Shown: positions 27,316 through 38,524, counted from the first letter of the stretch. The stretch is DNA of 64,000 nucleotides from an uncultured bacterium (GCA_963727525.1 CAVSGO010000006.1:64001-128000); one strand, 5' to 3'. The notes: generated from the letters alone by a model not told the origin. Translations and numbers: made by a program.

Positions 27316-28881
27316 ATGGCGACCGATTCCTGGCTGCTCGACGTCTGGCGAGAAGCCTGCCAGCATCTTGACCTCGGCGAGCTGATCGCGCGGCTCGCCC
27401 CGCTCGTCAAATGCCGCTGGCCCGTGAGCGCGGTCGCCGTGGCGCGCCAGTCGCCCGACGCCAAGGTGATGGAACTTGTCGGCCCGCTTGGCGACGGCGA
27501 CGTCGCGGCGGACCAGCGCCGCGAGCTGACGTCTGCCGATTCCCGCTTGCTCGGCGCCTGGCTTGCACAGGGGCAGACGGAGATCATCGCGAACGACGGC
27601 CGGGTGCCGTCCGGTGTGGCCACGCTTCTGCCCGCTGCGTACACCCGGGCCGGTACCGTCATCGCGCCGCTCACCTCGTCCGATGAGGCGCGCGGGCTAC
27701 TCGTGGTCGTACCCGCGGATTCCGAGGCGCCGCACGGGGTGCTTCCGGCTGTCGAGCAGCTGCGGGCTCCGCTCGCCGCAGCCCTGGCGAACGACCGTCG
27801 GTTGCGTGAGCTGGTGGATCTGCGCCGGGCTGCCGAAGCCGATCGGCGATCCTTGCTCACGCGTCTCGGCCGCGACGAGTTGCTCGAGACCATCGTCGGC
27901 GCCGACGGCGGCCTGCGTGGTGTGATGGCACGCGTCGCCATGGTCGCGGCGTCGGACATACCGGTGCTGATCCTGGGCGAGACCGGTGCCGGCAAGGAGG
28001 TCGTGGCGCGCGCCGTGCACGCGCGGTCGCGACGCGCGCACGGGCCGTTCACGCGCGTGAACTGCGGTGCCATCCCGCCAGAGCTGGTGGATTCCGAACT
28101 CTTTGGCCACGAGAAGGGGAGCTTCACCGGCGCCATGTCCCGCCGCCGCGGCTGGTTCGAGCGCTCGGACCAGGGCACCCTGTTGCTCGACGAGGTCGGC
28201 GAACTGCCGAAAGCGGCGCAGGTGCGGTTGCTACGAGTGATCCAGGACGGCATGCTCCAGCGTGTGGGGGGGGAGTCGATGCTCCGGGTCGACGTGCGGA
28301 TCATCGCAGCCACCCATGCCGATCTTGCCGCCATGGTGCAGCGCGGCGAGTTTCGCGAGGACCTGTGGTACCGGCTCGCTGTTTTTCCGCTGGTGTTGCC
28401 TCCCCTGCGTGAACGGACCGAGGATATTCCCGACCTCGTTGCCATGCTCGCGCGACGCGCCTCGCGACGATTCGGCCTCAGGCCGCAGCGACCGACGGCT
28501 GCCGATCTCGCCCTGCTTGCGGCCTATCCGTGGCCGGGAAACGTCCGGGAACTGGGTTCGGTAATCGATCGTGCCGCCATCCTGGGCGATGGCAAGTGTC
28601 TGGATATCGCGAAGGCGCTCGGCAGCGGCGGTCCCGGCATGCACGCGGGGGCATGGGCGTCGTCGCCACGTGCGACGAGCGCGACGCCCGAGGCGCTCGC
28701 GTCGCTGGACGCGGCGATGGCTGCGCACATTCGCGCCGCCCTCATTGCCTGCGATGGTCGTATCGAGGGGGCGCAGGGCGCGGCCGTTCTCCTGTGCATC
28801 AACCCGCACACGCTGCGCGCGCGCATGCGAAAGCTCGGTCTCGAGTGGGCCCGATATCGGGTCCATCGATCCACAGGCTGA
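27316..28881 (+). CDS. Sigma54-dependent transcriptional activator (FhlA/HyfR-like, GAF-like N-terminus)
   Basis: GETGAGKE, ELFGHEKGSFTGA, LDEVGEL, FREDLWYRL, WPGNVREL, C-terminal HTH. Confidence 0.93.
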   Translation: MATDSWLLDVWREACQHLDLGELIARLAPLVKCRWPVSAVAVARQSPDAKVMELVGPLGDGDVAADQRRELTSADSRLLGAWLAQGQTEIIANDGRVPSGVATLLPAAYTRAGTVIAPLTSSDEARGLLVVVPADSEAPHGVLPAVEQLRAPLAAALANDRRLRELVDLRRAAEADRRSLLTRLGRDELLETIVGADGGLRGVMARVAMVAASDIPVLILGETGAGKEVVARAVHARSRRAHGPFTRVNCGAIPPELVDSELFGHEKGSFTGAMSRRRGWFERSDQGTLLLDEVGELPKAAQVRLLRVIQDGMLQRVGGESMLRVDVRIIAATHADLAAMVQRGEFREDLWYRLAVFPLVLPPLRERTEDIPDLVAMLARRASRRFGLRPQRPTAADLALLAAYPWPGNVRELGSVIDRAAILGDGKCLDIAKALGSGGPGMHAGAWASSPRATSATPEALASLDAAMAAHIRAALIACDGRIEGAQGAAVLLCINPHTLRARMRKLGLEWARYRVHRSTG

Positions 28882-28947
28882 ACTCCCATGTTTTTTGTAA
28901 GTGATGTATGTCTTTATATTTACACGAATCGGCACATGCGATTTTAT

Positions 28948-28965
28948 TTGTTAAATTTTTAACCT
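28948..28965. promoter_or_regulatory. Rex-like operator upstream of the cytochrome-rnf operon
   Basis: TTGTTAA-ATTT-TTAACCT vs TTGTTAA-N4-TTAACAA, within an AT-rich intergenic tract. Confidence 0.55.
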
Positions 28966-29029
28966 ATGACTAGGTTACATCACGAGCACGTTCCCTGAAC
29001 ACAGGCCGCACACGATGCGAGGTGGTCTC

Positions 29030-29503
29030 ATGACTTCTGACACGCCCTCCAATGGCGACCACTGGGAATGCATGGTCTGGGAGAAGCACCGGTACAATGA
29101 CCGTACTGTCATCAAATCCGGTTCCTATCTCCGCGCATCCTGTCCCTACTGCGCGGAATGTCTGATTGCCGAGGGCATGATCCGCCTCGCGTCCGTCTCG
29201 CGAGACGGGCGCAAGGGCTGGGTGGAACTGAGTCCGTACCTCAACGTCTTCGAGCGGCGCAGCGACATCCACCTTTCCGAGACCGCCGACTTTTCGGACC
29301 TGGTCTGTCCCCACTGCCACCGCTCGCTCAGGGTCCCGGAGCGCAAGTGCGGACGCGGCGATGCGAGCGTCGCCGTGGTGATGGTGGGCATCTCCACGAT
29401 CAACGTGCCCTTCTACTTCTGCATGCAGACGGGCTGCACATGGCACCTCATCGATCCAGAGGACGAGCACCGGATCATCCTGGACGACAGCCTGGAATGG
29501 TGA
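29030..29503 (+). CDS. Cys-rich hypothetical protein (possible Zn/Fe-S binding)
   Basis: CPYC, CPHC, C...CMQTGCTWH; first gene of the operon. Confidence 0.65.
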   Translation: MTSDTPSNGDHWECMVWEKHRYNDRTVIKSGSYLRASCPYCAECLIAEGMIRLASVSRDGRKGWVELSPYLNVFERRSDIHLSETADFSDLVCPHCHRSLRVPERKCGRGDASVAVVMVGISTINVPFYFCMQTGCTWHLIDPEDEHRIILDDSLEW

Positions 29504-29507
29504 CGCG

Positions 29508-30161
29508 ATGCCCTTCGCTGGACGCGATGATCATGGTTCGCCGGTTCGCGGTCACGCTCGCAGCAATGCGGTGCTGATCGTCGTTGCGGTCGTGGCCGCC
29601 GCCGTCGCCGCCGGCGGATACTTGCGGGGGGCGCCGCCGCCGACGACTGATCGCATCTACCTGCGCAGCATCGGCGGCGCGGTTGTCTTCGGACATGCGG
29701 AGCACCAGGCTCGGGTCGCAAGCTGCCTGCCCTGCCACCATGAACTGATCCTGGGCGATCCGATCGCCTGCGCCACGTGCCACGATGCGGATGTCACGTT
29801 CGATCTGGCGTCGCATGACGAACTCGTGCAGATCGATGGCCACACCTGCGACGGCTGTCACGCGAGCGCAGATGCCACGGGTGCGCGCAACTGCCGCGCC
29901 TGCCATGCCTCTGAGGTCGAAGGCGCAACGAGCGTGCATGCCTGCAGCGATTGCCACGATGATGCGACATACGGGCCGGCGACGTTGCCGCACGCGAGTC
30001 TCGTGACCATCGAAGGACACAGTTGCGATGGGTGCCACACACCTCGCGCCCTTGCAGAAGCGTACCACGCGACCTGCAACGGCTGTCACCTGCGAGCCGC
30101 CCCGCAGCGATTCGCTGCAGCCGATGGTGGCGCGACGTGCGCAGCGTGCCACCTGAAGTGA
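29508..30161 (+). CDS. Membrane-anchored octaheme cytochrome c (c3/DhcA-like)
   Basis: 8 CxxCH motifs; VVFGHAEH c3-type motif; N-terminal hydrophobic anchor. Confidence 0.88.
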   Translation: MPFAGRDDHGSPVRGHARSNAVLIVVAVVAAAVAAGGYLRGAPPPTTDRIYLRSIGGAVVFGHAEHQARVASCLPCHHELILGDPIACATCHDADVTFDLASHDELVQIDGHTCDGCHASADATGARNCRACHASEVEGATSVHACSDCHDDATYGPATLPHASLVTIEGHSCDGCHTPRALAEAYHATCNGCHLRAAPQRFAAADGGATCAACHLK

Positions 30162-30177
30162 AACGCGGAGGTCGATC

Positions 30178-31482
30178 GTGAGCTTGCTCAACCTGTTCAA
30201 GACACCCGCGGCTCGCGTCCCCCGCGTGGCGCTCGGGTCCACGGCGATCGTCGACCTGCCCGATCCCGACCACGTGGTGATCCCCCTCGAGTATCCCGGT
30301 CAGATTCGCTTTCGACCCGCGGTCCAGGCCGGAGACTCCGTGGCGCGCGGGCAGGTGATCGGCCGTTCCGAACTGGGCAACTGCGTGCACGCCTCGATCA
30401 GCGGGCTGATCAAGGAGATCCGGACAATCTGGTCGGCTAGTGGCTACCACGTTCCGGCGGTCGTCATCACCCGCGGCGACGCACCCGCGCTCACACCCAC
30501 CGAGTGCCTCGGACAGTGCGGGCTCGATCTGGCCTCGGCGACACGCATCGCATTGCTCAAAGCGGGCGGTGTGATTTCCCCGTGGACCACGCCGGGCCAG
30601 GACCACCGAGAAGCGGACATCGGCGAGTTCCCGGACATCCAGCACATCGTCGTGAAGGGGCTGAACGAGGAGCCCACGATCGTAAATTTCGAGCTGCTCA
30701 TGGTGGAGGGAGCCGGCAGGCTGAAGGACGCGTTGCAACGGCTGTGCGATTTCGTGCCCCGCGCCACGATATGGTTGACGGTGGCGCGCCGCCTCGAGCC
30801 GTGGGCGCGCGAGACCTTCGAGGACCTCGTACGCGTGGTGGGCCTCGCCGAGGAGTATCGCCATCGCATCGAGCGGATGGTGGTGCCGCGCGTGACGGGC
30901 GTGGCCATTGCGAATACCGAGGCGTTCCGGTCGCGCGGTGTCGCCGTGCTCTCCGTCGAACACCTGCTGACCGCGGCCGATGCGCTTGCCGGCAAGCCAT
31001 TCACGCACAAGACGGCGACGATAGCCGGAGGCCTTCTGCGCGAGCCGGTGACCGTGCGCACACCGGTCGGAACGACGATCGGGACCTTGCTCGCGAGCCA
31101 GGGCATGAGCGCCGCCGACTACGGTCGTCTGATCGTCGGCGGCCCGATGCGCGGCATGACGCAGTATACCGACGAGACGCCGTTGAGCAAGTTCCAGCAC
31201 GGCGTATTGGTGATGGCAGCGTCCGAGCTGCCGGCGGAGCTGAACCGTACCTGTGTGAACTGCGGCCGCTGCACGCGCGCCTGTCCCGTGCACCTGCAGG
31301 TGCACCTCATCGGGCGTTGCGTGGAGTACAACCTGCTTGCCGAAGTGCCTTCGCGCCACCCAGAGGCCTGTCACGAGTGCGGGCTCTGCGCCTTCGTCTG
31401 TCCGGCTCATCGGCCCCTGGTGCAGATGATGAAGATCGCCAAGCGTGCGGGCGTGACCGAGACGAGCGAGGCGGTGGCATGA
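30178..31482 (+). CDS. rnfC: Divergent RnfC-like subunit
   Basis: N-terminal VQAGDSVARGQ...VHASISG, SLBB and GGPMRG, CVNCGRCTRACP and CHECGLCAFVCP; canonical GGAGFPT and NGAECEP motifs are replaced. Confidence 0.85.
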   Translation: MSLLNLFKTPAARVPRVALGSTAIVDLPDPDHVVIPLEYPGQIRFRPAVQAGDSVARGQVIGRSELGNCVHASISGLIKEIRTIWSASGYHVPAVVITRGDAPALTPTECLGQCGLDLASATRIALLKAGGVISPWTTPGQDHREADIGEFPDIQHIVVKGLNEEPTIVNFELLMVEGAGRLKDALQRLCDFVPRATIWLTVARRLEPWARETFEDLVRVVGLAEEYRHRIERMVVPRVTGVAIANTEAFRSRGVAVLSVEHLLTAADALAGKPFTHKTATIAGGLLREPVTVRTPVGTTIGTLLASQGMSAADYGRLIVGGPMRGMTQYTDETPLSKFQHGVLVMAASELPAELNRTCVNCGRCTRACPVHLQVHLIGRCVEYNLLAEVPSRHPEACHECGLCAFVCPAHRPLVQMMKIAKRAGVTETSEAVA

Positions 31483-32513
31483 TCCCGACGATCATCGACA
31501 CGCGGCCGGCGACCGACCAGGCGCCCAGGAACGATCGCGACGCTCAGCACGACCACAAGCTGAGCGTAGCCGAGGGGCCGCACTGGCACGACGGCAGTTC
31601 GCTCACGCGGACACAGATTCTCTGGCTTATGGCGCTGCTTCCCGCGGGCGTGGCGAGCGGCGTCATGCTCGGCGCACCGGCGTTGCGGGTGATGGCGCTG
31701 GCGGTCGCGGCCGCGATCGCCTTCGATGCCCTCGCCAACCGCGTGATGTCCCTGCCGGATGCCACCTCGAACGGCAGCAGCATCACTCTCGGCCTGCTGC
31801 TCGCCTTTCTCCTGCCGGTCGACGCGCCGTGGTGGTTGGTGGTCGTGGGCTGTTTCCTGACCATCGTGATCGGCAAGAAGCTCTTCGGTGGCTGGGGCGG
31901 CTATCCCGTGCATCCGGTGGCGCTGAGCTACGCGATGCTCGTCGTGTCGTGGCCAGCGCGGATGGACGTCACGGCGTCGCTCGTGCACGCGACCTGGCGC
32001 GCCGCACCGGTGGAACCTCTACGGCTCGTCAAGACCCTCGGCGCGGCCGCCGCCGCGCAATACGACCTCCACGACCTCCTGCTCGGCGTGCAGACCGCTG
32101 GCGTGGGCGACGCGATGGTGCTGTGGCTTCTCGCGGGCGGTGTCTTCCTATTCCTCGTCCGGCAGGTGCCCTGGCAGATTCCGATCGGTGTCGTCGCCGG
32201 CGTGGTGCTCTGCGCCTGGCTGCTCGGCATGGCCGACCCCGGGCGCACGGCCACGCCGGCCTTCCAGCTCCTGGCGGGCGGTACGGTGTTCATGGCGTTC
32301 TTTCTGGCGCCGGAGCACACGACATCGCCGGTCAACCCGTGGCCGATGTTCCTCTACGGGTGGTTGGGCGGCGTGTTGCTCGTGCTGATCCGCGCGTTCT
32401 CGAGTCACATCGACGGCACGGTATTCGCCGTGCTGCTGATGAACGTCGCCTGTCCGCTGCTCGACCGCCTGGGGCCCCGGATCGTCGGCCTGGAGGTGCC
32501 ACGCGATGCGTGA
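31479..32513 (+). CDS. rnfD: Rnf subunit D
   Basis: GPHWH, GKKLFGGWGGYPVHP, TSP, FAVLLMN; multi-TM. Confidence 0.9.
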   Translation: MIPTIIDTRPATDQAPRNDRDAQHDHKLSVAEGPHWHDGSSLTRTQILWLMALLPAGVASGVMLGAPALRVMALAVAAAIAFDALANRVMSLPDATSNGSSITLGLLLAFLLPVDAPWWLVVVGCFLTIVIGKKLFGGWGGYPVHPVALSYAMLVVSWPARMDVTASLVHATWRAAPVEPLRLVKTLGAAAAAQYDLHDLLLGVQTAGVGDAMVLWLLAGGVFLFLVRQVPWQIPIGVVAGVVLCAWLLGMADPGRTATPAFQLLAGGTVFMAFFLAPEHTTSPVNPWPMFLYGWLGGVLLVLIRAFSSHIDGTVFAVLLMNVACPLLDRLGPRIVGLEVPRDA

Positions 32514-33111
32514 AATCGGTCGCCTGGTGCTGGTGCTCGGGCTCATCGGCGTGGTGAGCGCGTCGTCGCTGGCATACGTGCGCACGACCCTCGCTCCCCG
32601 GATCGAGCGGCAGAACGATTTCTACGTGCGCGGGCCGGCGCTCGAACGGCTGTTCCAGCAGCCGGCACGCACTCTCCTGGGCAACAAGGTGACGCTGGAT
32701 GCGGCCGGCACCCGCTACCTGATCTTCTTTCGGCGAGTGGACGGCGACGTCACGGGTCTCGCCGTGGAAGCGCCTGGCCACGGCGGCTACGCCGGCGACG
32801 TGGTGATGATGGTCGGACTCGATCTTGTCACCGAACGGATGCTCGGCGTGGAGATCGTCTCGCACGGCGAGACCCCGGGCGTGGGTGCCCGGATCGAGAG
32901 ACCGACATTCCGCAAGCAGTGGCGAGGCTTGCCGATGGACGACACGCTGAATCTGCGCACTGCGGGCGGCAACATCGACGCGATCAGCGGTGCCACCTTC
33001 TCGTCGCGTGCCATGATCGACGGCACCAACCAGGTCGATGGCCCTGATGCGGGATCACAGGGCCGACATCCTGGCGCGCATAGCCGGGAACTAGACGGAG
33101 AGCGGTCATGA
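32506..33111 (+). CDS. rnfG: Rnf subunit G (FMN-binding); probable extra base near 33037, corrected stop at 33094
   Basis: [22 protein letters not shown] flavinylation motif. Confidence 0.9.
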
Positions 33112-33720
33112 CGTTCAGGCAGGCACTCACTCACGGGTTCTGGCGAGACCTGCCGCCTTTCCGGCTGGTGCTTGGCCTCTGCCCGGCTCTGGCCGTCACC
33201 TCGGCCGCGCCCAACGGGCTGGGCATGGGGTTGGCGGTGACCTTCGTGCTGATCTTCTCCAACATGTTCATCTCGCTGCTGCGCCGGGTGATCCCCGAGC
33301 GAGGTACGGATCGCCAGCTACATCGTGGTGATCGCCAGCCTCGTGGTGCTCGTGGAACTGGGCATGAAGGCGTTCTTCTTCTCGCTCTCCCAGCAGTTGG
33401 GGATCTACATCCCGCTCATCGTCGTGAACTGCATCCTGCTGGGGCGCGCCGAGGCGTTCGCCTCGCGCAATCCTGTGCTGCTGTCCGTGGCCGACGGGGT
33501 GAGCGTGGGGCTGGGCTACACGGTCTCGCTCACGTTGATGGCGTCGGTGCGCGAGGTCCTGGGCGCCGGCACGTGGTTCGGCCATACAGTGTTCGGACAT
33601 GGTTTCGAGCCCTTCGGTTTCATGGTCAGGGCGCCGGGGGCGTTCCTCTGCCTGGGCCTGCTCCTCGGACTGATGAATGCCTGGAGCCGCAAGCGCGGCG
33701 AGTTCTTCGTGCAGACGTGA
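33108..33720 (+). CDS. rnfE: Rnf subunit E, interrupted by one extra base near 33300
   Basis: [10 protein letters not shown] in one frame; [11 protein letters not shown] and [19 protein letters not shown] in the next. Confidence 0.9.
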
Positions 33721-33734
33721 CGGGAGACCGTGCC

Positions 33735-34310
33735 ATGAACCTGATTCTGCTGACCGTGAGTGCGATCTTCGTACACAACATCCTGCTGGCGCAATACCTG
33801 GGCAACTGCCCGTTCTGCGGCGTATCGAAGAGGATCGAAACCGCGACCGGCATGGCGGTGGCCGTGGTATTCGTGACCACTCTGGCGTCGATCTTCACCT
33901 GGGGCACGTATCACCAGATTCTCGTGCCATTGCACCTGGAGTACCTGCAAACGCTGGTCTTCATCCTGGTGATCGCGGCCCTCGTGCAGTTCGTGGAGAT
34001 CTTCCTCAAGAAGAAGAGCCGTTCCCTCTACAACGCGCTCGGGATCTACCTGCCACTGATCACCACGAACTGCGCCGTGCTGGGGATCGCGTTGCTCAAT
34101 ATCAAGAACAACTTCGGCTTCGTGCACATGGTGGTGTATTCCGCCGCCAGCTCGGCGGGATTCGGCCTTGCCATCGTGCTGTTCGCCGGGGTGCGCGAGC
34201 GCCTCTTCCTGTCGCCGGTGCCGCGGTCCATGCAGGGGACGGCGATCGCCCTCGTCACGGCCGGCATCATGTCGCTCGCGTTCCTGGGGTTCGCGGGCAT
34301 GGTCGAGTAG
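33735..34310 (+). CDS. rnfA: Rnf subunit A
   Basis: [32 protein letters not shown]. Confidence 0.95.
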
Positions 34311-34325
34311 CCACGGAGACGCACC

Positions 34326-36416
34326 ATGTGGATCCCCGCTGTCGTCCTCGGAGGTATCGCCGCGATCGCGGCGGTGGTGCTGGGCATTGCGGCGCGCGTC
34401 TTCCACGTTCAGGAAGATCCGCGGATCAAGGCCGTCAATGACCTGCTCGCCGGCGCCAACTGCGGGGGCTGCGGCTACGCGGGCTGCGTCGCCTGTGCGG
34501 AGGCGATCGTCCGCGGCGAGGTGGAGCCCAACGCATGCGTGGTCGGTCAGGCCGATGTGGCGCGCGCCGTCGCCTCGTTTCTGGGCATGGAACTGGCCGA
34601 CACGGAGCCGCAGATCGCGTGCCCCGACTGCCAGGGAGGGTTGCGCGCCTCGCGCAAGTACGCCTACGCCGGCTTTGACGACTGCCGCGCTGCTATGCTC
34701 TATTTCCACGGCCCCGTGTCATGCCAGCACGGATGCCTCGGGCTGGGCACCTGCATCCGCGCCTGCAAGTTCGGGGCGATCACGATGGGGCCCGCCGGGT
34801 TGCCCCTCTTCGATCCTACGCGCTGCGTGGCCTGCGGCGCCTGCGCTCGCGCTTGCCCCAAGGGCATCATCTCGATCATTTCCGAGACGACCAAGATCCT
34901 GCACTGGAATCGCTACACCGAATGCCTGGCCCCGTGCCGGCAGAAGTGTCCGGCGCAGATCAACATCCCCAAGTACATCGAGCACCTGAAGCGCGGCGAG
35001 TTCGCCGAGGCGTTGCTGACGATCAAGGAGAGCAACCCGCTACCGCTCTCCACGGGCCGGGTATGCCCCGAGCCGTGTGCCCTGGCCTGCCGGCGACATA
35101 TCGGCGACGAACCGGTAGCGATCAACTATCTCAAGCGCTTCGCGGCCGACTGGGAAATGAGCTCGGGGCGCCGCCTGCACATCCCTGTGCTTCCGGATAC
35201 CGGCCGGAAGGTCGCGGTGATCGGAGGCGGGCCAGCCGGACTGTCCGCGGCCTACTTCCTGCGCCGCCTCGGCCACGCCGTCACCATCTATGATCAGATG
35301 CCGGCGCTCGGCGGCATGCTGCGCTACGGCATTCCGGAGTACCGTCTTCCCAAGCGTGTTCTCGACTGGGAGATCGAGGGCATCCTGGCACTCGGCATCC
35401 AGGCCGCGACCGGTGTCGCTCTGGGCAAGGACTTCACCATCGATTTCCTGCGCGCCAATGGTCACGACGCGATCTTCCTCGCCGTGGGTGCATGGCGCGA
35501 CAATGGCCTTGGCCTCGAGGACGACGGCGTCTCTGGTATCGTGAGCGGCATCGAGTTGCTGCGGCGCATGCAGACGTCCGCGCCGATCCCCTTACGTGGA
35601 CACGTGATCGTGATCGGCGGCGGCAACACCGCCATCGATGCCGCGCGCACCGCCCTGCGAGCCGGCGCGAGTCGGGTGAGCATCGTGTATCGCCGTTCGC
35701 GCGACGAGATGCCGGCGAATCCGGCCGAGATCGTGGCCGCTGACGAGGAGGGCGTGCGATACCGCTTCCTCAGCGCGCCCAACCGCATCGTATCCGACGC
35801 CGGCCACGTCACCGGGCTCGAGATTCTGCGCATGGAGCTGGGCGAACCCGATCCCAGCGGTCGGCGAAGGCCCGTGGCGATCGCGGGATCGGAAGAGACG
35901 ATCCCGTGCGACCTGATCATCGAGGCCGTGGGCCAGATGCCCGACATCGATTTCCTTGCGGTGCCGGGCATGCCGTCGTTGCCGACAACGCGCTGGAACA
36001 CGATCGACGCCAGCGAGGACACGCTACAGACCGATGTGCCCTACATCTTCACCGGTGGTGATTGCTTCACGGGACCCTCGCTCATGGTCAACGCGATCGG
36101 TGCTGGTCGGTATGCGGCACGATCGATCCACTATTACGTGACCGAGGGCAGGATTCCGCCAATCGAGCACCGACAGACCGAACTCATCAGCGACTCGCTC
36201 TACGAGTCCATCGCGGGTGTGGCACCCCGCCCTCGGGTGCACGAGCCCGTCGTGACGCTGCAGGACCGCCTCGGCACTTTCAATGAGGTCGAGGGCACGA
36301 TCGACGAAGAGGATGCCCTCTACGAGGCCGCGCGTTGCCTGCATTGCGGCACCTACTGCTATGACCACGATCTGGAGCAGGAACGTCTGCGGCAGGAGAC
36401 CGAGCAGCCGGCGTGA
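34326..36416 (+). CDS. rnfB: RnfB fused to a GltD/NfnB-like FAD/NADPH oxidoreductase
   Basis: RnfB N-terminus (EDPRI, NCGGCGYAGC, two ferredoxin motifs), then APCRQKCP, GRVCPEPC, GGGPAG, GGMLRYGIPEYRLP, GGGNTAID, YRRSR, RCLHCG. Confidence 0.92.
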   Translation: MWIPAVVLGGIAAIAAVVLGIAARVFHVQEDPRIKAVNDLLAGANCGGCGYAGCVACAEAIVRGEVEPNACVVGQADVARAVASFLGMELADTEPQIACPDCQGGLRASRKYAYAGFDDCRAAMLYFHGPVSCQHGCLGLGTCIRACKFGAITMGPAGLPLFDPTRCVACGACARACPKGIISIISETTKILHWNRYTECLAPCRQKCPAQINIPKYIEHLKRGEFAEALLTIKESNPLPLSTGRVCPEPCALACRRHIGDEPVAINYLKRFAADWEMSSGRRLHIPVLPDTGRKVAVIGGGPAGLSAAYFLRRLGHAVTIYDQMPALGGMLRYGIPEYRLPKRVLDWEIEGILALGIQAATGVALGKDFTIDFLRANGHDAIFLAVGAWRDNGLGLEDDGVSGIVSGIELLRRMQTSAPIPLRGHVIVIGGGNTAIDAARTALRAGASRVSIVYRRSRDEMPANPAEIVAADEEGVRYRFLSAPNRIVSDAGHVTGLEILRMELGEPDPSGRRRPVAIAGSEETIPCDLIIEAVGQMPDIDFLAVPGMPSLPTTRWNTIDASEDTLQTDVPYIFTGGDCFTGPSLMVNAIGAGRYAARSIHYYVTEGRIPPIEHRQTELISDSLYESIAGVAPRPRVHEPVVTLQDRLGTFNEVEGTIDEEDALYEAARCLHCGTYCYDHDLEQERLRQETEQPA

Positions 36417-36446
36417 TCCGGCCGCCATGCAGAAAGGTACGGCAAG

Positions 36447-36854
36447 GTGTATCTACGGACCGCGCGAAATCGCCTGCAGTTCGTGCTCTGGCTCGTCGCG
36501 GTGCACTCTGCCGCCGTTGCCGTGGGACTCATGGCGCATCCCGTAGCGCTGCTGGAACGCCTCGGCTTCGCCGCCGTGGGCGAGCCGTTCTTCCCGACCC
36601 AGGGCGGCGTCTTCCATCTGGTCATGGCGGTAGGCTACGCGATGGCTGCCTGGTCGCCGGATCGCAACCGCTGCCTGGCCGTGTTCTCGATCGTGGTCAA
36701 GGTTCTGGCCACGCTCTTTCTGCTCGTCTATTGGTTCGTGATCTCTCGTCTACCGGCGGTGCTGCTTTCCGGCCTGGTCGACGGCGCCATGGCGGTAATG
36801 ATCGCGCTCGCGTACGCGGCATGGCGACGCGAGCAAGCACGCGAGGTGTCGTGA
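36447..36854 (+). CDS. Small four-TM membrane protein
   Basis: Hydrophobic 135-aa ORF whose stop overlaps the next start. Confidence 0.65.
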   Translation: MYLRTARNRLQFVLWLVAVHSAAVAVGLMAHPVALLERLGFAAVGEPFFPTQGGVFHLVMAVGYAMAAWSPDRNRCLAVFSIVVKVLATLFLLVYWFVISRLPAVLLSGLVDGAMAVMIALAYAAWRREQAREVS

Positions 36855-38524
36855 TGGACACGAAGCTGCCCGGAATCGTCGTGACCGGCGCCTCCGGCTT
36901 CATCGGTCGGCACTTCCTGGCCAGTGCGGCCGGACGCTACCGGCTGTTCTGTCTGGCGCGCCGCTCGCGCGAGGAGTCGCAGATTCCCGCCTACGAAAAC
37001 CTGCATTGGTCGCAGGTTGACGTTGCGCGCTGGGACGACCTACGCGAGGTCGTGCATTGCGTGAAGAGCCATGGAGGCGCGTCTGCCGTGCTTCATCTCG
37101 CCGGCTACTACGACTTCCACAACATGGAGCACCCCGAATACGAACGCACGAACGTGAAGGGGACCCGCAACGTTCTCAAACTGGCGCGTCAGCTCGGTGT
37201 CGGTCGCTTCATCTTCGCCAGCTCCCTGGCCGCGTGCCGGTTTCCGCCGGCGGGCCTGGCGATCACCGAGGATTCGCCGGCCGACGCCGGATTCGCCTAT
37301 GCCCGGAGCAAGCGCGACGCGGAGGAACTCATCTGCGCGCATACCCAATGGATCCCAGCGTCCATCGTGCGCCTCGCTGCGGTCTATAGCGACTGGTGCG
37401 AGTATCCACCGCTCTATGTCTTCCTGAAGACGTGGCTATCGGACGGCTGGAACGCCTGCATTCTCGGGGGGCGCGGCGAATCGGCGGTGCCGTACATTCA
37501 CGTCCAGGATCTGGTGAAGCTCTTTCATGTGATCCTCGAGCGCAGCGCTACGCTGCCGCGACTGGCCGTGTACAACGCCAGCCCGAATTCAGTGGCCAGC
37601 CATCGGGATCTGTTCCAGATGGCGACGCGTGCATACTACGGCACGGACATCCAGCCGCGATGCGTGCCGCGCGTACTGGCGGTACCGGGCGTGTTCCTGC
37701 GCTGGTGGCTCGGCAAGGCCCGAGGGGCGGCGCCGTTCGAGGCGCCCTGGATGATGCGGTATGTGGACGCGCAGCTCCGGGTCGATGCCAACCGCACCCA
37801 TGCGGCGCTCGATTGGCGCCCGGCGCCGCGCATGGACGTCGTACGACGGCTACTGGTGATGATCGAGAATATGAAGACGCACTCCGAAATATGGCATCAG
37901 CGCAATGAGGCGGCTCTACGGCGCGTGGCATACCGTCCCAATCTCGTCATCGCCCGGATCCTCGACGACCTGCGCGAGGAGTTGATCGCCCGGATCGCCG
38001 AACGGGTGAATTCACCGGATCTGGCCTCGCAATTCGCCGGATATCACGACATGGAGCGCGAGACGCTCCGCTGGTACCTCGCGTTGCTCTACCAGGTGCT
38101 CGTGGCGTCCGTGCGCACGCGCGACCGGCAGCTCATCCGGCACTACGCCCAGGTCATCGCCACGAGACGCCAGCAGGAGGGTTTCTCGTCCGACGAAGTG
38201 CGCGACTTCCTGATCCTGGTGGGCAAGATCGTGACTGAGACGTTGCGCACGCATGCCGAGCTTGTGGGGCACGAGCAGCCCATTCACGACAATGTCGGTC
38301 TGGCGTTCCAGCTCGCGGTCGACGGCATCGAGGACGTCTACGAAGCTCACGAGGCGCTCAATCCGGAATTGATTGCGCGGGGGCAGGGCTTCGCGGAACT
38401 GGGCTCGAACCGCGACCTCGAGCATATGGTTCACCAGCTCCGCGATCTCTGTGGCGATGTGTTCCCGACGCCCGGTGTCCACGCGAACACGGCCACGACG
38501 GATCGTCCCGTCATCGGACCATGA
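36854..38524 (+). CDS. NAD-dependent epimerase/dehydratase (extended SDR) with extra helical C-terminal domain
   Basis: VTGASGFIG, HLAG, YARSK; C-terminal ~200 aa helical, RsbRD_N/globin-like. Confidence 0.85.
   Translation: MDTKLPGIVVTGASGFIGRHFLASAAGRYRLFCLARRSREESQIPAYENLHWSQVDVARWDDLREVVHCVKSHGGASAVLHLAGYYDFHNMEHPEYERTNVKGTRNVLKLARQLGVGRFIFASSLAACRFPPAGLAITEDSPADAGFAYARSKRDAEELICAHTQWIPASIVRLAAVYSDWCEYPPLYVFLKTWLSDGWNACILGGRGESAVPYIHVQDLVKLFHVILERSATLPRLAVYNASPNSVASHRDLFQMATRAYYGTDIQPRCVPRVLAVPGVFLRWWLGKARGAAPFEAPWMMRYVDAQLRVDANRTHAALDWRPAPRMDVVRRLLVMIENMKTHSEIWHQRNEAALRRVAYRPNLVIARILDDLREELIARIAERVNSPDLASQFAGYHDMERETLRWYLALLYQVLVASVRTRDRQLIRHYAQVIATRRQQEGFSSDEVRDFLILVGKIVTETLRTHAELVGHEQPIHDNVGLAFQLAVDGIEDVYEAHEALNPELIARGQGFAELGSNRDLEHMVHQLRDLCGDVFPTPGVHANTATTDRPVIGP

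Follow-up and report, generated by a model that had tools for sequence, protein, structure and literature searches.

The stretch of DNA analysed here, 64,000 nucleotides from an uncultured bacterium (GCA_963727525.1, CAVSGO010000006.1:64001-128000; called the window below, with positions counted from its first letter), carries between 29030 and 36416 an operon for an Rnf-type electron-transfer complex in which the RnfB subunit is fused to a flavoprotein. Judged by gene content and domain architecture, this operon is a member of the known Rnf2 class, in a form that belongs to the Fibrobacterota-Chlorobiota-Bacteroidota (FCB) group and has one extra gene. It shares with Rnf2 an RnfB of ~700 amino acids with an NAD(P)-binding part, an RnfC without Complex1_51K and SLBB signatures, a cytochrome gene, the order cytochrome-rnfCDGEA-rnfB, and a membrane core of common descent, which groups with those of Desulfobacterales and Desulfovibrionaceae.

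The first report of this type of Rnf, also named after Desulfobacula toluolica Tol2 (Tol2-type), is said to be that of Woehlbrand et al. in Proteomics in 2016 (doi 10.1002/pmic.201500360). Passages of the later literature call the complex of D. toluolica Tol2 'a different type of Rnf', with an RnfB of ~700 amino acids that has NAD+-binding sites, and expect for this type an RnfC acceptor or donor other than NAD and a different mode of action (PMC5109826). In the same source, five of the six Rnf2 subunits of D. multivorans are found in the membrane proteome, the rnf2 cytochrome is seen in lactate-grown cells, D. autotrophicum HRM2 is said to have the same repertoire, and the rnf2 cluster includes a small cytochrome. 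For marine sulfate reducers, Rnf2 is also assigned to the core genome of the Desulfobacteraceae as 'abundantly and constitutively formed' (PMC11887813), and many Desulfovibrionaceae are described as having a FAD (flavin adenine dinucleotide)-dependent oxidoreductase in place of rnfB, with a parallel drawn to NQR and the cytochrome identified as a CbcC homologue (PMC11434368). A sequence-only reading of the window had proposed a different, so far unrecognised energy-conserving topology. However, both the architecture and the inference drawn from it are in print for D. toluolica, Desulfococcus multivorans, Desulfobacterium autotrophicum, the Desulfobacteraceae core genome and the Desulfovibrionaceae (PMC5109826, PMC11887813, PMC11434368).

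The RnfB fusion and the cofactor sites of its partners

The operon consists of eight closely packed genes, all on the + strand. The cysteine-rich open reading frame (ORF), the octahaem cytochrome gene and rnfCDGEAB named in the sequence-only reading are all in place, except that rnfE is not one ORF. The genes and their downstream neighbour are as follows.

29030-29503, + strand: cysteine-rich ORF of 157 amino acids with 9 Cys; probably cytoplasmic, double zinc-ribbon type, no named family
29508-30161, + strand: octahaem c-type cytochrome of 217 amino acids with eight CXXCH motifs; Pfam Cytochrome_C7 (E=1.4e-8); predicted periplasmic
30178-31482, + strand: RnfC-like protein; RnfC_N domain and two [4Fe-4S] motifs kept, FMN (flavin mononucleotide)/NADH motifs replaced
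31479-32513, + strand: RnfD, by Pfam and NCBIfam; without the FMN-accepting Thr, with Glu in PVEPL (canonical TGATPL)
32506-33111, + strand: RnfG; flavinylation motif ISGATFSS intact
33108-33720, + strand: RnfE, split between frames; N-terminal part at 33108-33299 in frame 0, the rest at 33295-33720 in frame +1
33735-34310, + strand: RnfA; TIGR01943 at 248.6 bits, above the cut-off of 229.3
34326-36416, + strand: RnfB fusion of 696 amino acids; RnfB part followed by an NfnB/StnC/GltD-type flavoprotein
36821-38524 (start at 36821 or 36854), + strand: protein like short-chain dehydrogenase/reductase (SDR) and epimerase proteins, with a helical C-terminal domain of ~230 amino acids; Pfam Epimerase (E=7.8e-27)

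All Rnf subunits were assigned by Pfam and NCBIfam profiles, and for every subunit the NCBIfam Nqr model scores far below the Rnf model. For RnfG, the top NCBIfam model is the Desulfovibrio-type RnfG_DVU2794, with a score under that model's cut-off. The paired cysteines of the membrane subunits can be read in RnfE (GLCPAL and VVNCIL) and in RnfA (NCPF and TTNCAV).

Residues 1 to ~190 of the RnfB fusion comprise a transmembrane helix, the PF04060 FeS domain and a 2x[4Fe-4S] dicluster region, and are covered by the NCBIfam RnfB models (1-190). The downstream part has Fer4_20 (PF14691, 194-280), Pyr_redox_2 (PF07992, 295-594) and a C-terminal tail that ends in the CxxCxxxC motif RCLHCGTYC, and is covered by PRK12771 (196-681). 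It combines Fer4_20, a FAD Rossmann fold and a second NAD(P)H Rossmann fold with GxGxxA, as in NfnB, StnC and GltD. The motifs are GGGPAG at 300-305, GGGNTAID at 431-438 (its GxGxxA part being GGGNTA at 431-436) and YRR at 455-457; the last two had been picked out beforehand as hallmarks of an NADPH-type module, and both are present. The Fer4_20 part has six Cys in CxxxCxxxCP and CPxxCxxxC, and we infer that the Cys of the tail supply the remaining ligands of two clusters.

The solved structures nearest to the flavoprotein module are 9bov_A (454.5 bits), 9n5u_A and 8oh5_C, followed by the NfnB-type chains 4ylf_B (295 bits) and 5jca_L, and then by GltD and dihydropyrimidine dehydrogenase. Alignments to these relatives extend through the C-terminal RCLxCG tail and have GGGNTAxDAARTA...YRR in common. 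The deposited names of the first three are 'Molybdopterin oxidoreductase' (9bov_A), 'NfnA' (9n5u_A) and 'Formate dehydrogenase-O, major subunit' (8oh5_C); we take 8oh5 to be the StnABC complex of Sporomusa ovata. StnC is described in part of its literature as a fusion of GltD-like and NuoG-like parts that binds FAD and oxidises NADPH, with GxGxxA taken as an NADP(H) motif (PMC7483475). Because of the StnC-type homology and the GxGxxA motif, it is a reasonable inference that the module prefers NADPH over NADH.

The fusion of RnfB to this module is genuine and, to judge by its spread, old. When the whole fusion served as database query, 118 of the 120 best clusters listed were of ~670-716 amino acids and had PF04060, PF14691 and PF07992; the other two were shorter (571 and 558 amino acids). 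The sources include Krumholzibacteria, Zixibacteria, Gemmatimonadales, Thermoanaerobaculales, Marinimicrobia, Calditrichaceae, Desulfobulbaceae and the cultured Desulfopila sp. IMCC35006. Together with 28 genomic loci in which a full-length or near-full-length fused gene lies behind rnfA, these clusters rule out an assembly artefact.

The RnfC of the window has, in contrast, lost the signatures of a nucleotide-binding subunit. It has no match to Pfam Complex1_51K (PF01512) even at E<=1, matches SLBB at E=0.19, and scores 176.6 bits against TIGR01945 (cut-off 245.95). Relative to the solved RnfC chains 7zc6_C and 9eri_C, GMGGATFPTH is replaced by ISPWTTPGQDH and NAAECEPY by KGLNEEPT, while GGPMxG and both CxxCxxCxxxCP motifs are retained. 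Weak matches persist among 12 FCB-type RnfC homologues, to PF01512 in 4 (best 7.9e-6) and to SLBB in 11. By these remnants the fold has been kept and the site lost. The window protein is a NuoF-family relative without an FMN site. The FMN loop is present in 0/26 fused-type loci; its segment reads as a conserved SPWTxPG in the FCB group (for GxGGAxFP) and as PGxP in Desulfobacterales, and is deleted in Desulfovibrionaceae. The sequence-only reading is thus borne out in calling RnfC degenerate, and the case that would have spoken against it, an RnfC that still binds FMN and NADH, finds no binding motifs here; the subunit probably binds neither any more.

Twelve canonical operons from genomes of the window's phylum served as controls (order rnfABCDGE, unfused RnfB of ~275-310 amino acids). 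In their RnfC, GxGGA(T/S)FPTHVK, NxAECEPYLT and VQNV are all present (12/12), and TGATPLG is found in 10/11 of their RnfD. With the FMN/NADH motifs of RnfC lost at all 26 fused-type loci and an NfnB/StnC/GltD-like module joined to RnfB, the proposal that the pyridine-nucleotide site has left RnfC for the RnfB end holds.

A second flavin site is altered in RnfD. The window protein has a Glu (~residue 178) where A. woodii RnfD has T156, its carrier of covalent FMN (PMC11889175, in part of that paper), and the [ST]GAT-PL flavinylation motif occurs in 0/25 aligned fused-type relatives. Opposite D249, a riboflavin ligand, an acidic residue (E or D) has been retained, and the flavinylation Thr of RnfG is kept in 28/28 fused-type loci. 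Passages of the Rnf2 literature do not mention the RnfD Thr loss, which the supplement of PMC11887813 or the 2016 Proteomics paper may state.

In the window cytochrome, a hydrophobic segment at the N terminus (a signal peptide or membrane anchor) is followed by CXXCH motifs that number exactly eight, and the ORF stops 17 bases short of rnfC. Wherever the region in front of rnfC is present at fused-type loci (26/26), the ORF immediately upstream is a multihaem one, with eight haem motifs at 12 loci, ten at 8, five at 3, six at 2 and four at 1. The window cytochrome as query found no match at the twelve canonical control loci. These counts, set against the canonical controls, indicate that the fused RnfB, the RnfC without an FMN site, the RnfD without the FMN Thr and the cytochrome gene travel together; the survey of co-occurrence that had been suggested for fusion, degenerate RnfC and cytochrome therefore gave a positive answer.

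Relatives of the operon and comparison with other systems

A scan of species-representative genomes yielded 80 loci, of which L001-L028 have a full-length or near-full-length fusion, L029 a truncated one and L030-L080 the flavoprotein part only. By tblastn, the complete order of Cys-rich ORF, cytochrome, rnfCDGEA and fused rnfB is found in eleven metagenome-assembled genomes (MAGs) of the FCB group (L001-L011). A Zixibacteria locus (L027) has the complete order without a match to the Cys-rich ORF, and L012 and L014-L026, from Desulfovibrionaceae and Desulfobacterales, have cytochrome, rnfCDGEA and fused rnfB; cultured carriers among the latter are Pseudodesulfovibrio karagichevae and Desulfovibrio caledoniensis.

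The truncated locus, in a Gemmatimonadota MAG (L029:8142-11023), has rnfG, rnfE, rnfA and a 340-amino-acid RnfB in which Fer4_20 is still present and the flavin domain is gone; neither rnfC nor rnfD precedes these genes. It was dismissed as an unfused control, being a decayed remnant, and the twelve canonical operons were used instead.

In a maximum-likelihood tree of concatenated RnfD and RnfA (39 rows), a single branch with support of 100/100 stands between the 28 fused rows and the 11 canonical controls; the tree is unrooted and its controls come from one phylum. Loci from Desulfobacteraceae MAGs stood in for the named Rnf2 strains, and L013, L029 and the control L097 were left out because they had no long RnfD match. 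The fused side falls into three well-supported groups, namely FCB (14 rows, including the window), Desulfobacterales (6) and Desulfovibrionaceae (8).

Among 201 genomes of the phylum, matches that span the fusion junction occur in 17, all within the window's family (17/87, counting G000), and in 0/114 genomes of other families. Unfused RnfB is present in many genomes of this sample, and several fused-type genomes hold both kinds. For instance, a Krumholzibacteriia MAG (L091:1-13140) has an Rnf2-type operon and a canonical rnfABCDGE operon ~5.5 kb apart, an arrangement reminiscent of D. multivorans, in which rnf1 and rnf2 are reported to be colocalised.

The window genome (4.66 Mb, 8 contigs, 96.7% complete) is probably that of a member of the Krumholzibacteria, in the FCB group, and not of a sulfate reducer. 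The PF02508 profile (RnfA/E, NqrD/E) matches in it at the rnf locus and nowhere else, so the locus is the genome's sole Rnf/Nqr. PF01512 matches two other, NuoF-like genes and not rnfC, and two ApbE genes are available for flavinylation.

By these matches, the Rnf2 type is found in MAGs of Krumholzibacteria, Zixibacteria, Latescibacteria, Calditrichota and Marinimicrobia type. No description of the fused type outside the Desulfobacterota was found in the literature, which is not proof that none exists; a 2025 review of RNF and NQR contains none of the terms by which a fused form was sought, and what is described for Caldithrix abyssi is a canonical rnfBCDGEA.

Compared with the Rnf2 of Desulfobacteraceae, the window operon differs in its FCB host, its leading 157-amino-acid gene and the absence of a canonical Rnf1 from the genome. 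The fused RnfB of Desulfovibrionaceae is 51-55% identical to that of the window over residues 6-685, and likewise has rnfCDGEA upstream with a multihaem cytochrome in front; these operons differ in having a decahaem cytochrome, a deleted FMN-loop segment and no Cys-rich ORF. Passages of PMC11434368 treat the flavoprotein of Desulfovibrionaceae as a replacement of rnfB, whereas the sequences compared here are fusions in which the RnfB part is kept. Relative to the canonical ferredoxin:NAD+ Rnf, the RnfC FMN/NADH site and the RnfD Thr are missing, while the RnfG Thr and the paired Cys of RnfA/E are present.

In its wiring, the complex parallels the Na+-translocating NADH:quinone oxidoreductase (Na+-NQR), in which NADH enters through NqrF at the position of RnfB and the cofactors of NqrA have been lost (passages of PMC11889175). 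The two differ in that the entry module of the window is of GltD/NfnB type and not the FNR (ferredoxin-NADP+ reductase)-type NqrF (2Fe-2S and FAD/NADH), in that the window RnfC has two [4Fe-4S] motifs where NqrA has none, and in that RnfD is without the covalent-FMN Thr of NqrB; moreover, the window system implies no quinone site. The Rnf of Methanosarcina acetivorans with MmcA resembles the window in having a multihaem cytochrome as an added subunit, which would carry electrons to acceptors in the membrane or outside the cell (passages of PMC12174285, PMC6703419 and 10.1101/2022.07.20.500911), and is a precedent for electron exit by such a subunit (PMC12174285). However, its donor is ferredoxin at a normal RnfB, and that of the window would be a fused NAD(P)H flavoprotein. 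PF01512 has a match in the M. acetivorans control genome, which may or may not be the RnfC of that organism. Two-subunit NQR/RNF-like systems, for which one-way flow from NAD(P)H to the outside is proposed, have an RnfD-like protein without the Thr and an RnfG-like protein that keeps it, as in the window (passages of PMC11334425). In these systems an FNR-type NAD-binding domain is fused to the RnfD-like protein, whereas the window keeps all six subunits. Finally, NfnAB and StnABC have a partner with a second FAD exit (NfnA; StnA/StnB) that has no counterpart in 29030-38524.

The SDR/epimerase-like gene that follows the operon is its syntenic neighbour and not an established member of it; a homologue precedes the operon in L001, L004 and L011 and follows it in L008. 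Its product might be a nucleotide-sensing or accessory protein. A scan of 28700-37000 gave nothing usable, with no promoter-like site and four terminator-like ones (3.0 expected).

Proposed electron path and its alternatives

Our preferred reading, held with moderate confidence, is that the complex is an ion-translocating NAD(P)H:cytochrome c oxidoreductase that is wired like NQR, with a path from NAD(P)H through FAD, the clusters of the fusion, RnfA/E and the RnfG FMN to the cytochrome. NAD(P)H, probably NADPH, would be oxidised by the FAD in the NfnB/StnC-like part of the RnfB fusion, and electrons would pass through the two [4Fe-4S] clusters of the module and the three clusters of RnfB (five in the fusion) to the iron-sulfur centre of RnfA/E. 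They would then reach the covalent FMN of periplasmic RnfG and leave mainly through the octahaem cytochrome c, and from it to the periplasmic cytochrome pool. This downhill flow would drive export of Na+ or H+ at RnfA/E, and in reverse an ion gradient could drive NADP+ reduction from cytochromes. RnfC would have lost FMN and NADH binding and kept its two [4Fe-4S] clusters for some partner. The data show the domain content, the motif losses with their strict co-variation, and the clade; nucleotide preference, cytochrome exit, ion pumping and direction are deduced from these. Of the earlier suggestions, a coupling of NADP(H) to a periplasmic cytochrome pool is plausible; the relocated nucleotide site stands, and the claim to a new topology does not.

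Several observations weigh against this proposal. All eight Cys of both [4Fe-4S] motifs of RnfC are retained in 25/26 relatives; the kept cluster Cys suggest that RnfC is still on the electron path, and thus the cytochrome may not be the sole, or even the main, exit. Loss of the RnfD Thr does not prove that the route from RnfG to RnfC is cut; for NQR/RNF-like systems, direct transfer from the extracytosolic FMN to a non-covalent flavin site has been proposed (passages of PMC11334425). Desulfovibrio operons with a canonical RnfB also include a cytochrome gene (part of PMC11434368), which is therefore no exclusive mark of the fused type. The choice of NADPH over NADH draws on motifs and homology, and the passages of Rnf2 literature consulted contain no biochemical assay of any member, PMC5109826 stating that the proposed mode of action 'awaits experimental verification'. 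Lastly, because rnfE is frameshifted in the assembly, the complex may be inactive in the host organism.

The frameshift is due to a single extra base within 33293-33303. When the RnfE proteins of relatives are compared with the window by tblastn, their residues 1-65 match 33108-33302, and residues 63-203 match 33295-33717 one frame further on. At the junction the relatives read VIP(D/E)(K/E/D)VRIAS, and the window needs frame 0 for RRVIPE and frame +1 for SEVRIAS; one extra base was deduced from this division of the junction residues over two frames. Among the relatives' ORFs compared with the window in this way, rnfE is the sole real gene split, the other split flags being out-of-frame or antisense ORFs over neighbouring genes. 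RnfE is a single ORF of 197-226 amino acids in 28/28 relatives examined. One public DNA run, with 6% of the sampled words, is listed, and its contigs leave 33170-33303 uncovered; the same public run look-up lists no RNA runs that share words with the stretch. The extra base may have arisen in the assembly or be a recent lesion.

If the lesion is real, the operon of the window genome would be a recent pseudo-operon whose complex is not made. We consider this rather unlikely. The split itself and the intact rnfE of all 28 relatives speak for it. On the other hand, both halves of RnfE are 82-92% identical to their nearest relatives, the other genes of the operon are undamaged, and the locus is the only Rnf/Nqr that the genome has. 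In addition, an 8-contig assembly of metagenome type can hold single-base insertion or deletion errors, and a comparable split of rnfC occurs in another assembly, L006. There, in a Latescibacteria MAG (L006:5837-7106), rnfC matches in two frames (residues 1-287 and 282-423) with a single-base frame break.

It is unlikely, though the components would be identical to those of the forward path, that the same machine runs mainly in reverse. A cytochrome pool fed by H2, formate or extracellular donors would then deliver electrons through the octahaem cytochrome and RnfG for gradient-driven reduction of NADP+, providing biosynthetic NADPH. Rnf complexes are reversible (passages of PMC12174285 and PMC11889175). 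The sequence fixes no direction, however, and the host has separate NuoF-like genes.

A third alternative, which seems quite unlikely, keeps the U-shaped path of an Rnf, such that electrons from NAD(P)H would pass through RnfA/E and RnfG to a non-covalent flavin of RnfD, then to the clusters of RnfC and on to a cytoplasmic partner other than NAD (ferredoxin or the zinc-ribbon protein), with the cytochrome as an accessory. The conservation of the RnfC cluster motifs in 25/26 relatives fits such a path, as does the E or D kept at the position of D249, and the literature on this Rnf type expects a non-NAD acceptor or donor at RnfC (passages of PMC5109826). Conservation of SPWTxPG where the FMN loop was also suggests a site that is remodelled rather than dead. 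Nevertheless, no candidate partner was found, and the FMN site of RnfD has been lost in all members. The Cys-rich ORF does not qualify as a universal partner because a query with the window protein found no match to it at the fused-type loci of Desulfobacterota.

The cysteine-rich protein and the question of electron bifurcation

The leading gene of the operon belongs to a family for which 39 clusters were found, with a length nearly fixed at 157 amino acids, which supports the ATG at 29030 as its start. Seven cysteines (C38, C41, C93, C96, C107, C131 and C136) never vary, H139 varies hardly at all, and the protein ends in EW. The pattern is that of a putative double zinc ribbon, of which the metal itself is not readable from sequence. 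Within the phylum sample, the genomes with a full-length copy (E<=1e-73) are precisely the 13 that have a 77-83%-identical fused RnfB, and in 12 of these 13 the two genes are on one contig, within ~6 kb. An AlphaFold2 model of the protein has a mean predicted local distance difference test score (pLDDT) of 72.0, and Foldseek found no match to it in the PDB at E<=0.001 (best 0.26). An Atlas look-up returned only unnamed clusters, and a complex prediction with RnfC gave scores of 0.00 and 0.00, set against a mark of 0.32, which are no evidence either way.

Shorter relatives of the Cys-rich protein (E 1e-12 to 1e-14) lie ~3 kb from StnC-type genes of 1255-1373 amino acids in 7 genomes, which are not independent because 6/7 are from one genus. 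At the three loci checked, the order is HydA-like, Cys-like, small ORF, NuoF-like and GltD-NuoG-like (StnB/StnC-type), and the relatives stand between the HydA-like gene (Fe_hyd_lg_C and FeS) and the NuoF-like/GltD-NuoG-like pair.

L100:3688-4068: shorter relative of the Cys-rich ORF
L101:8519-8896, - strand: shorter relative of the Cys-rich ORF
L102:2875-3252: shorter relative of the Cys-rich ORF

A gene for a histidine-kinase-like ATPase precedes the Cys-like loci of L100, L101 and L102. Separately, a second fused Rnf type was observed in the same family (L105:1579-16514), with a fusion 38% identical over the full length; rnfCDGEA and fused rnfB are followed there by NuoG-like, NuoF-like and Cys-ORF-like genes. 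This locus and the StnB/StnC-like neighbourhoods hint that the small Cys-rich protein goes with the NfnB/StnC-type module.

The sequence-only reading had also considered electron bifurcation. The NfnB-like FAD would then split NADPH electrons between a high-potential route, the Rnf path to the cytochrome, and ferredoxin as a low-potential acceptor. The nearest solved relatives of the module are indeed in bifurcating enzymes (NfnB and StnC-type), and shorter relatives of the Cys-rich ORF stand beside StnB/StnC-like pairs in the 7 genomes described above, albeit 6 of one genus. However, the operon encodes no NfnA-, NuoE- or NuoF-like partner, and GltD and dihydropyrimidine dehydrogenase share the fold without bifurcating. 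As no second FAD exit is visible in the operon, what speaks for bifurcation is the NfnB-like ancestry of the module and nothing further, and we regard it as very unlikely. More speculative still, and most improbable, is a version for the FCB Rnf2 in which the zinc-ribbon protein would be a subunit of the flavin module and form, with the remodelled RnfC, the second FAD exit of a membrane-bound, ion-coupled bifurcating enzyme. Electrons from NADPH would then go partly to the cytochrome pool of the periplasm and partly to a cytoplasmic acceptor of low potential.

Overall, the window adds to the Rnf2 class a wider taxonomic range, the co-varying losses of the FMN sites of RnfC and RnfD, and a small conserved gene that may encode a partner. 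Should the complex indeed be wired like NQR, it would couple NAD(P)H to periplasmic cytochromes with energy conservation and independently of quinones, and would thus bear on the NADPH balance of anaerobes with extracellular electron transfer.

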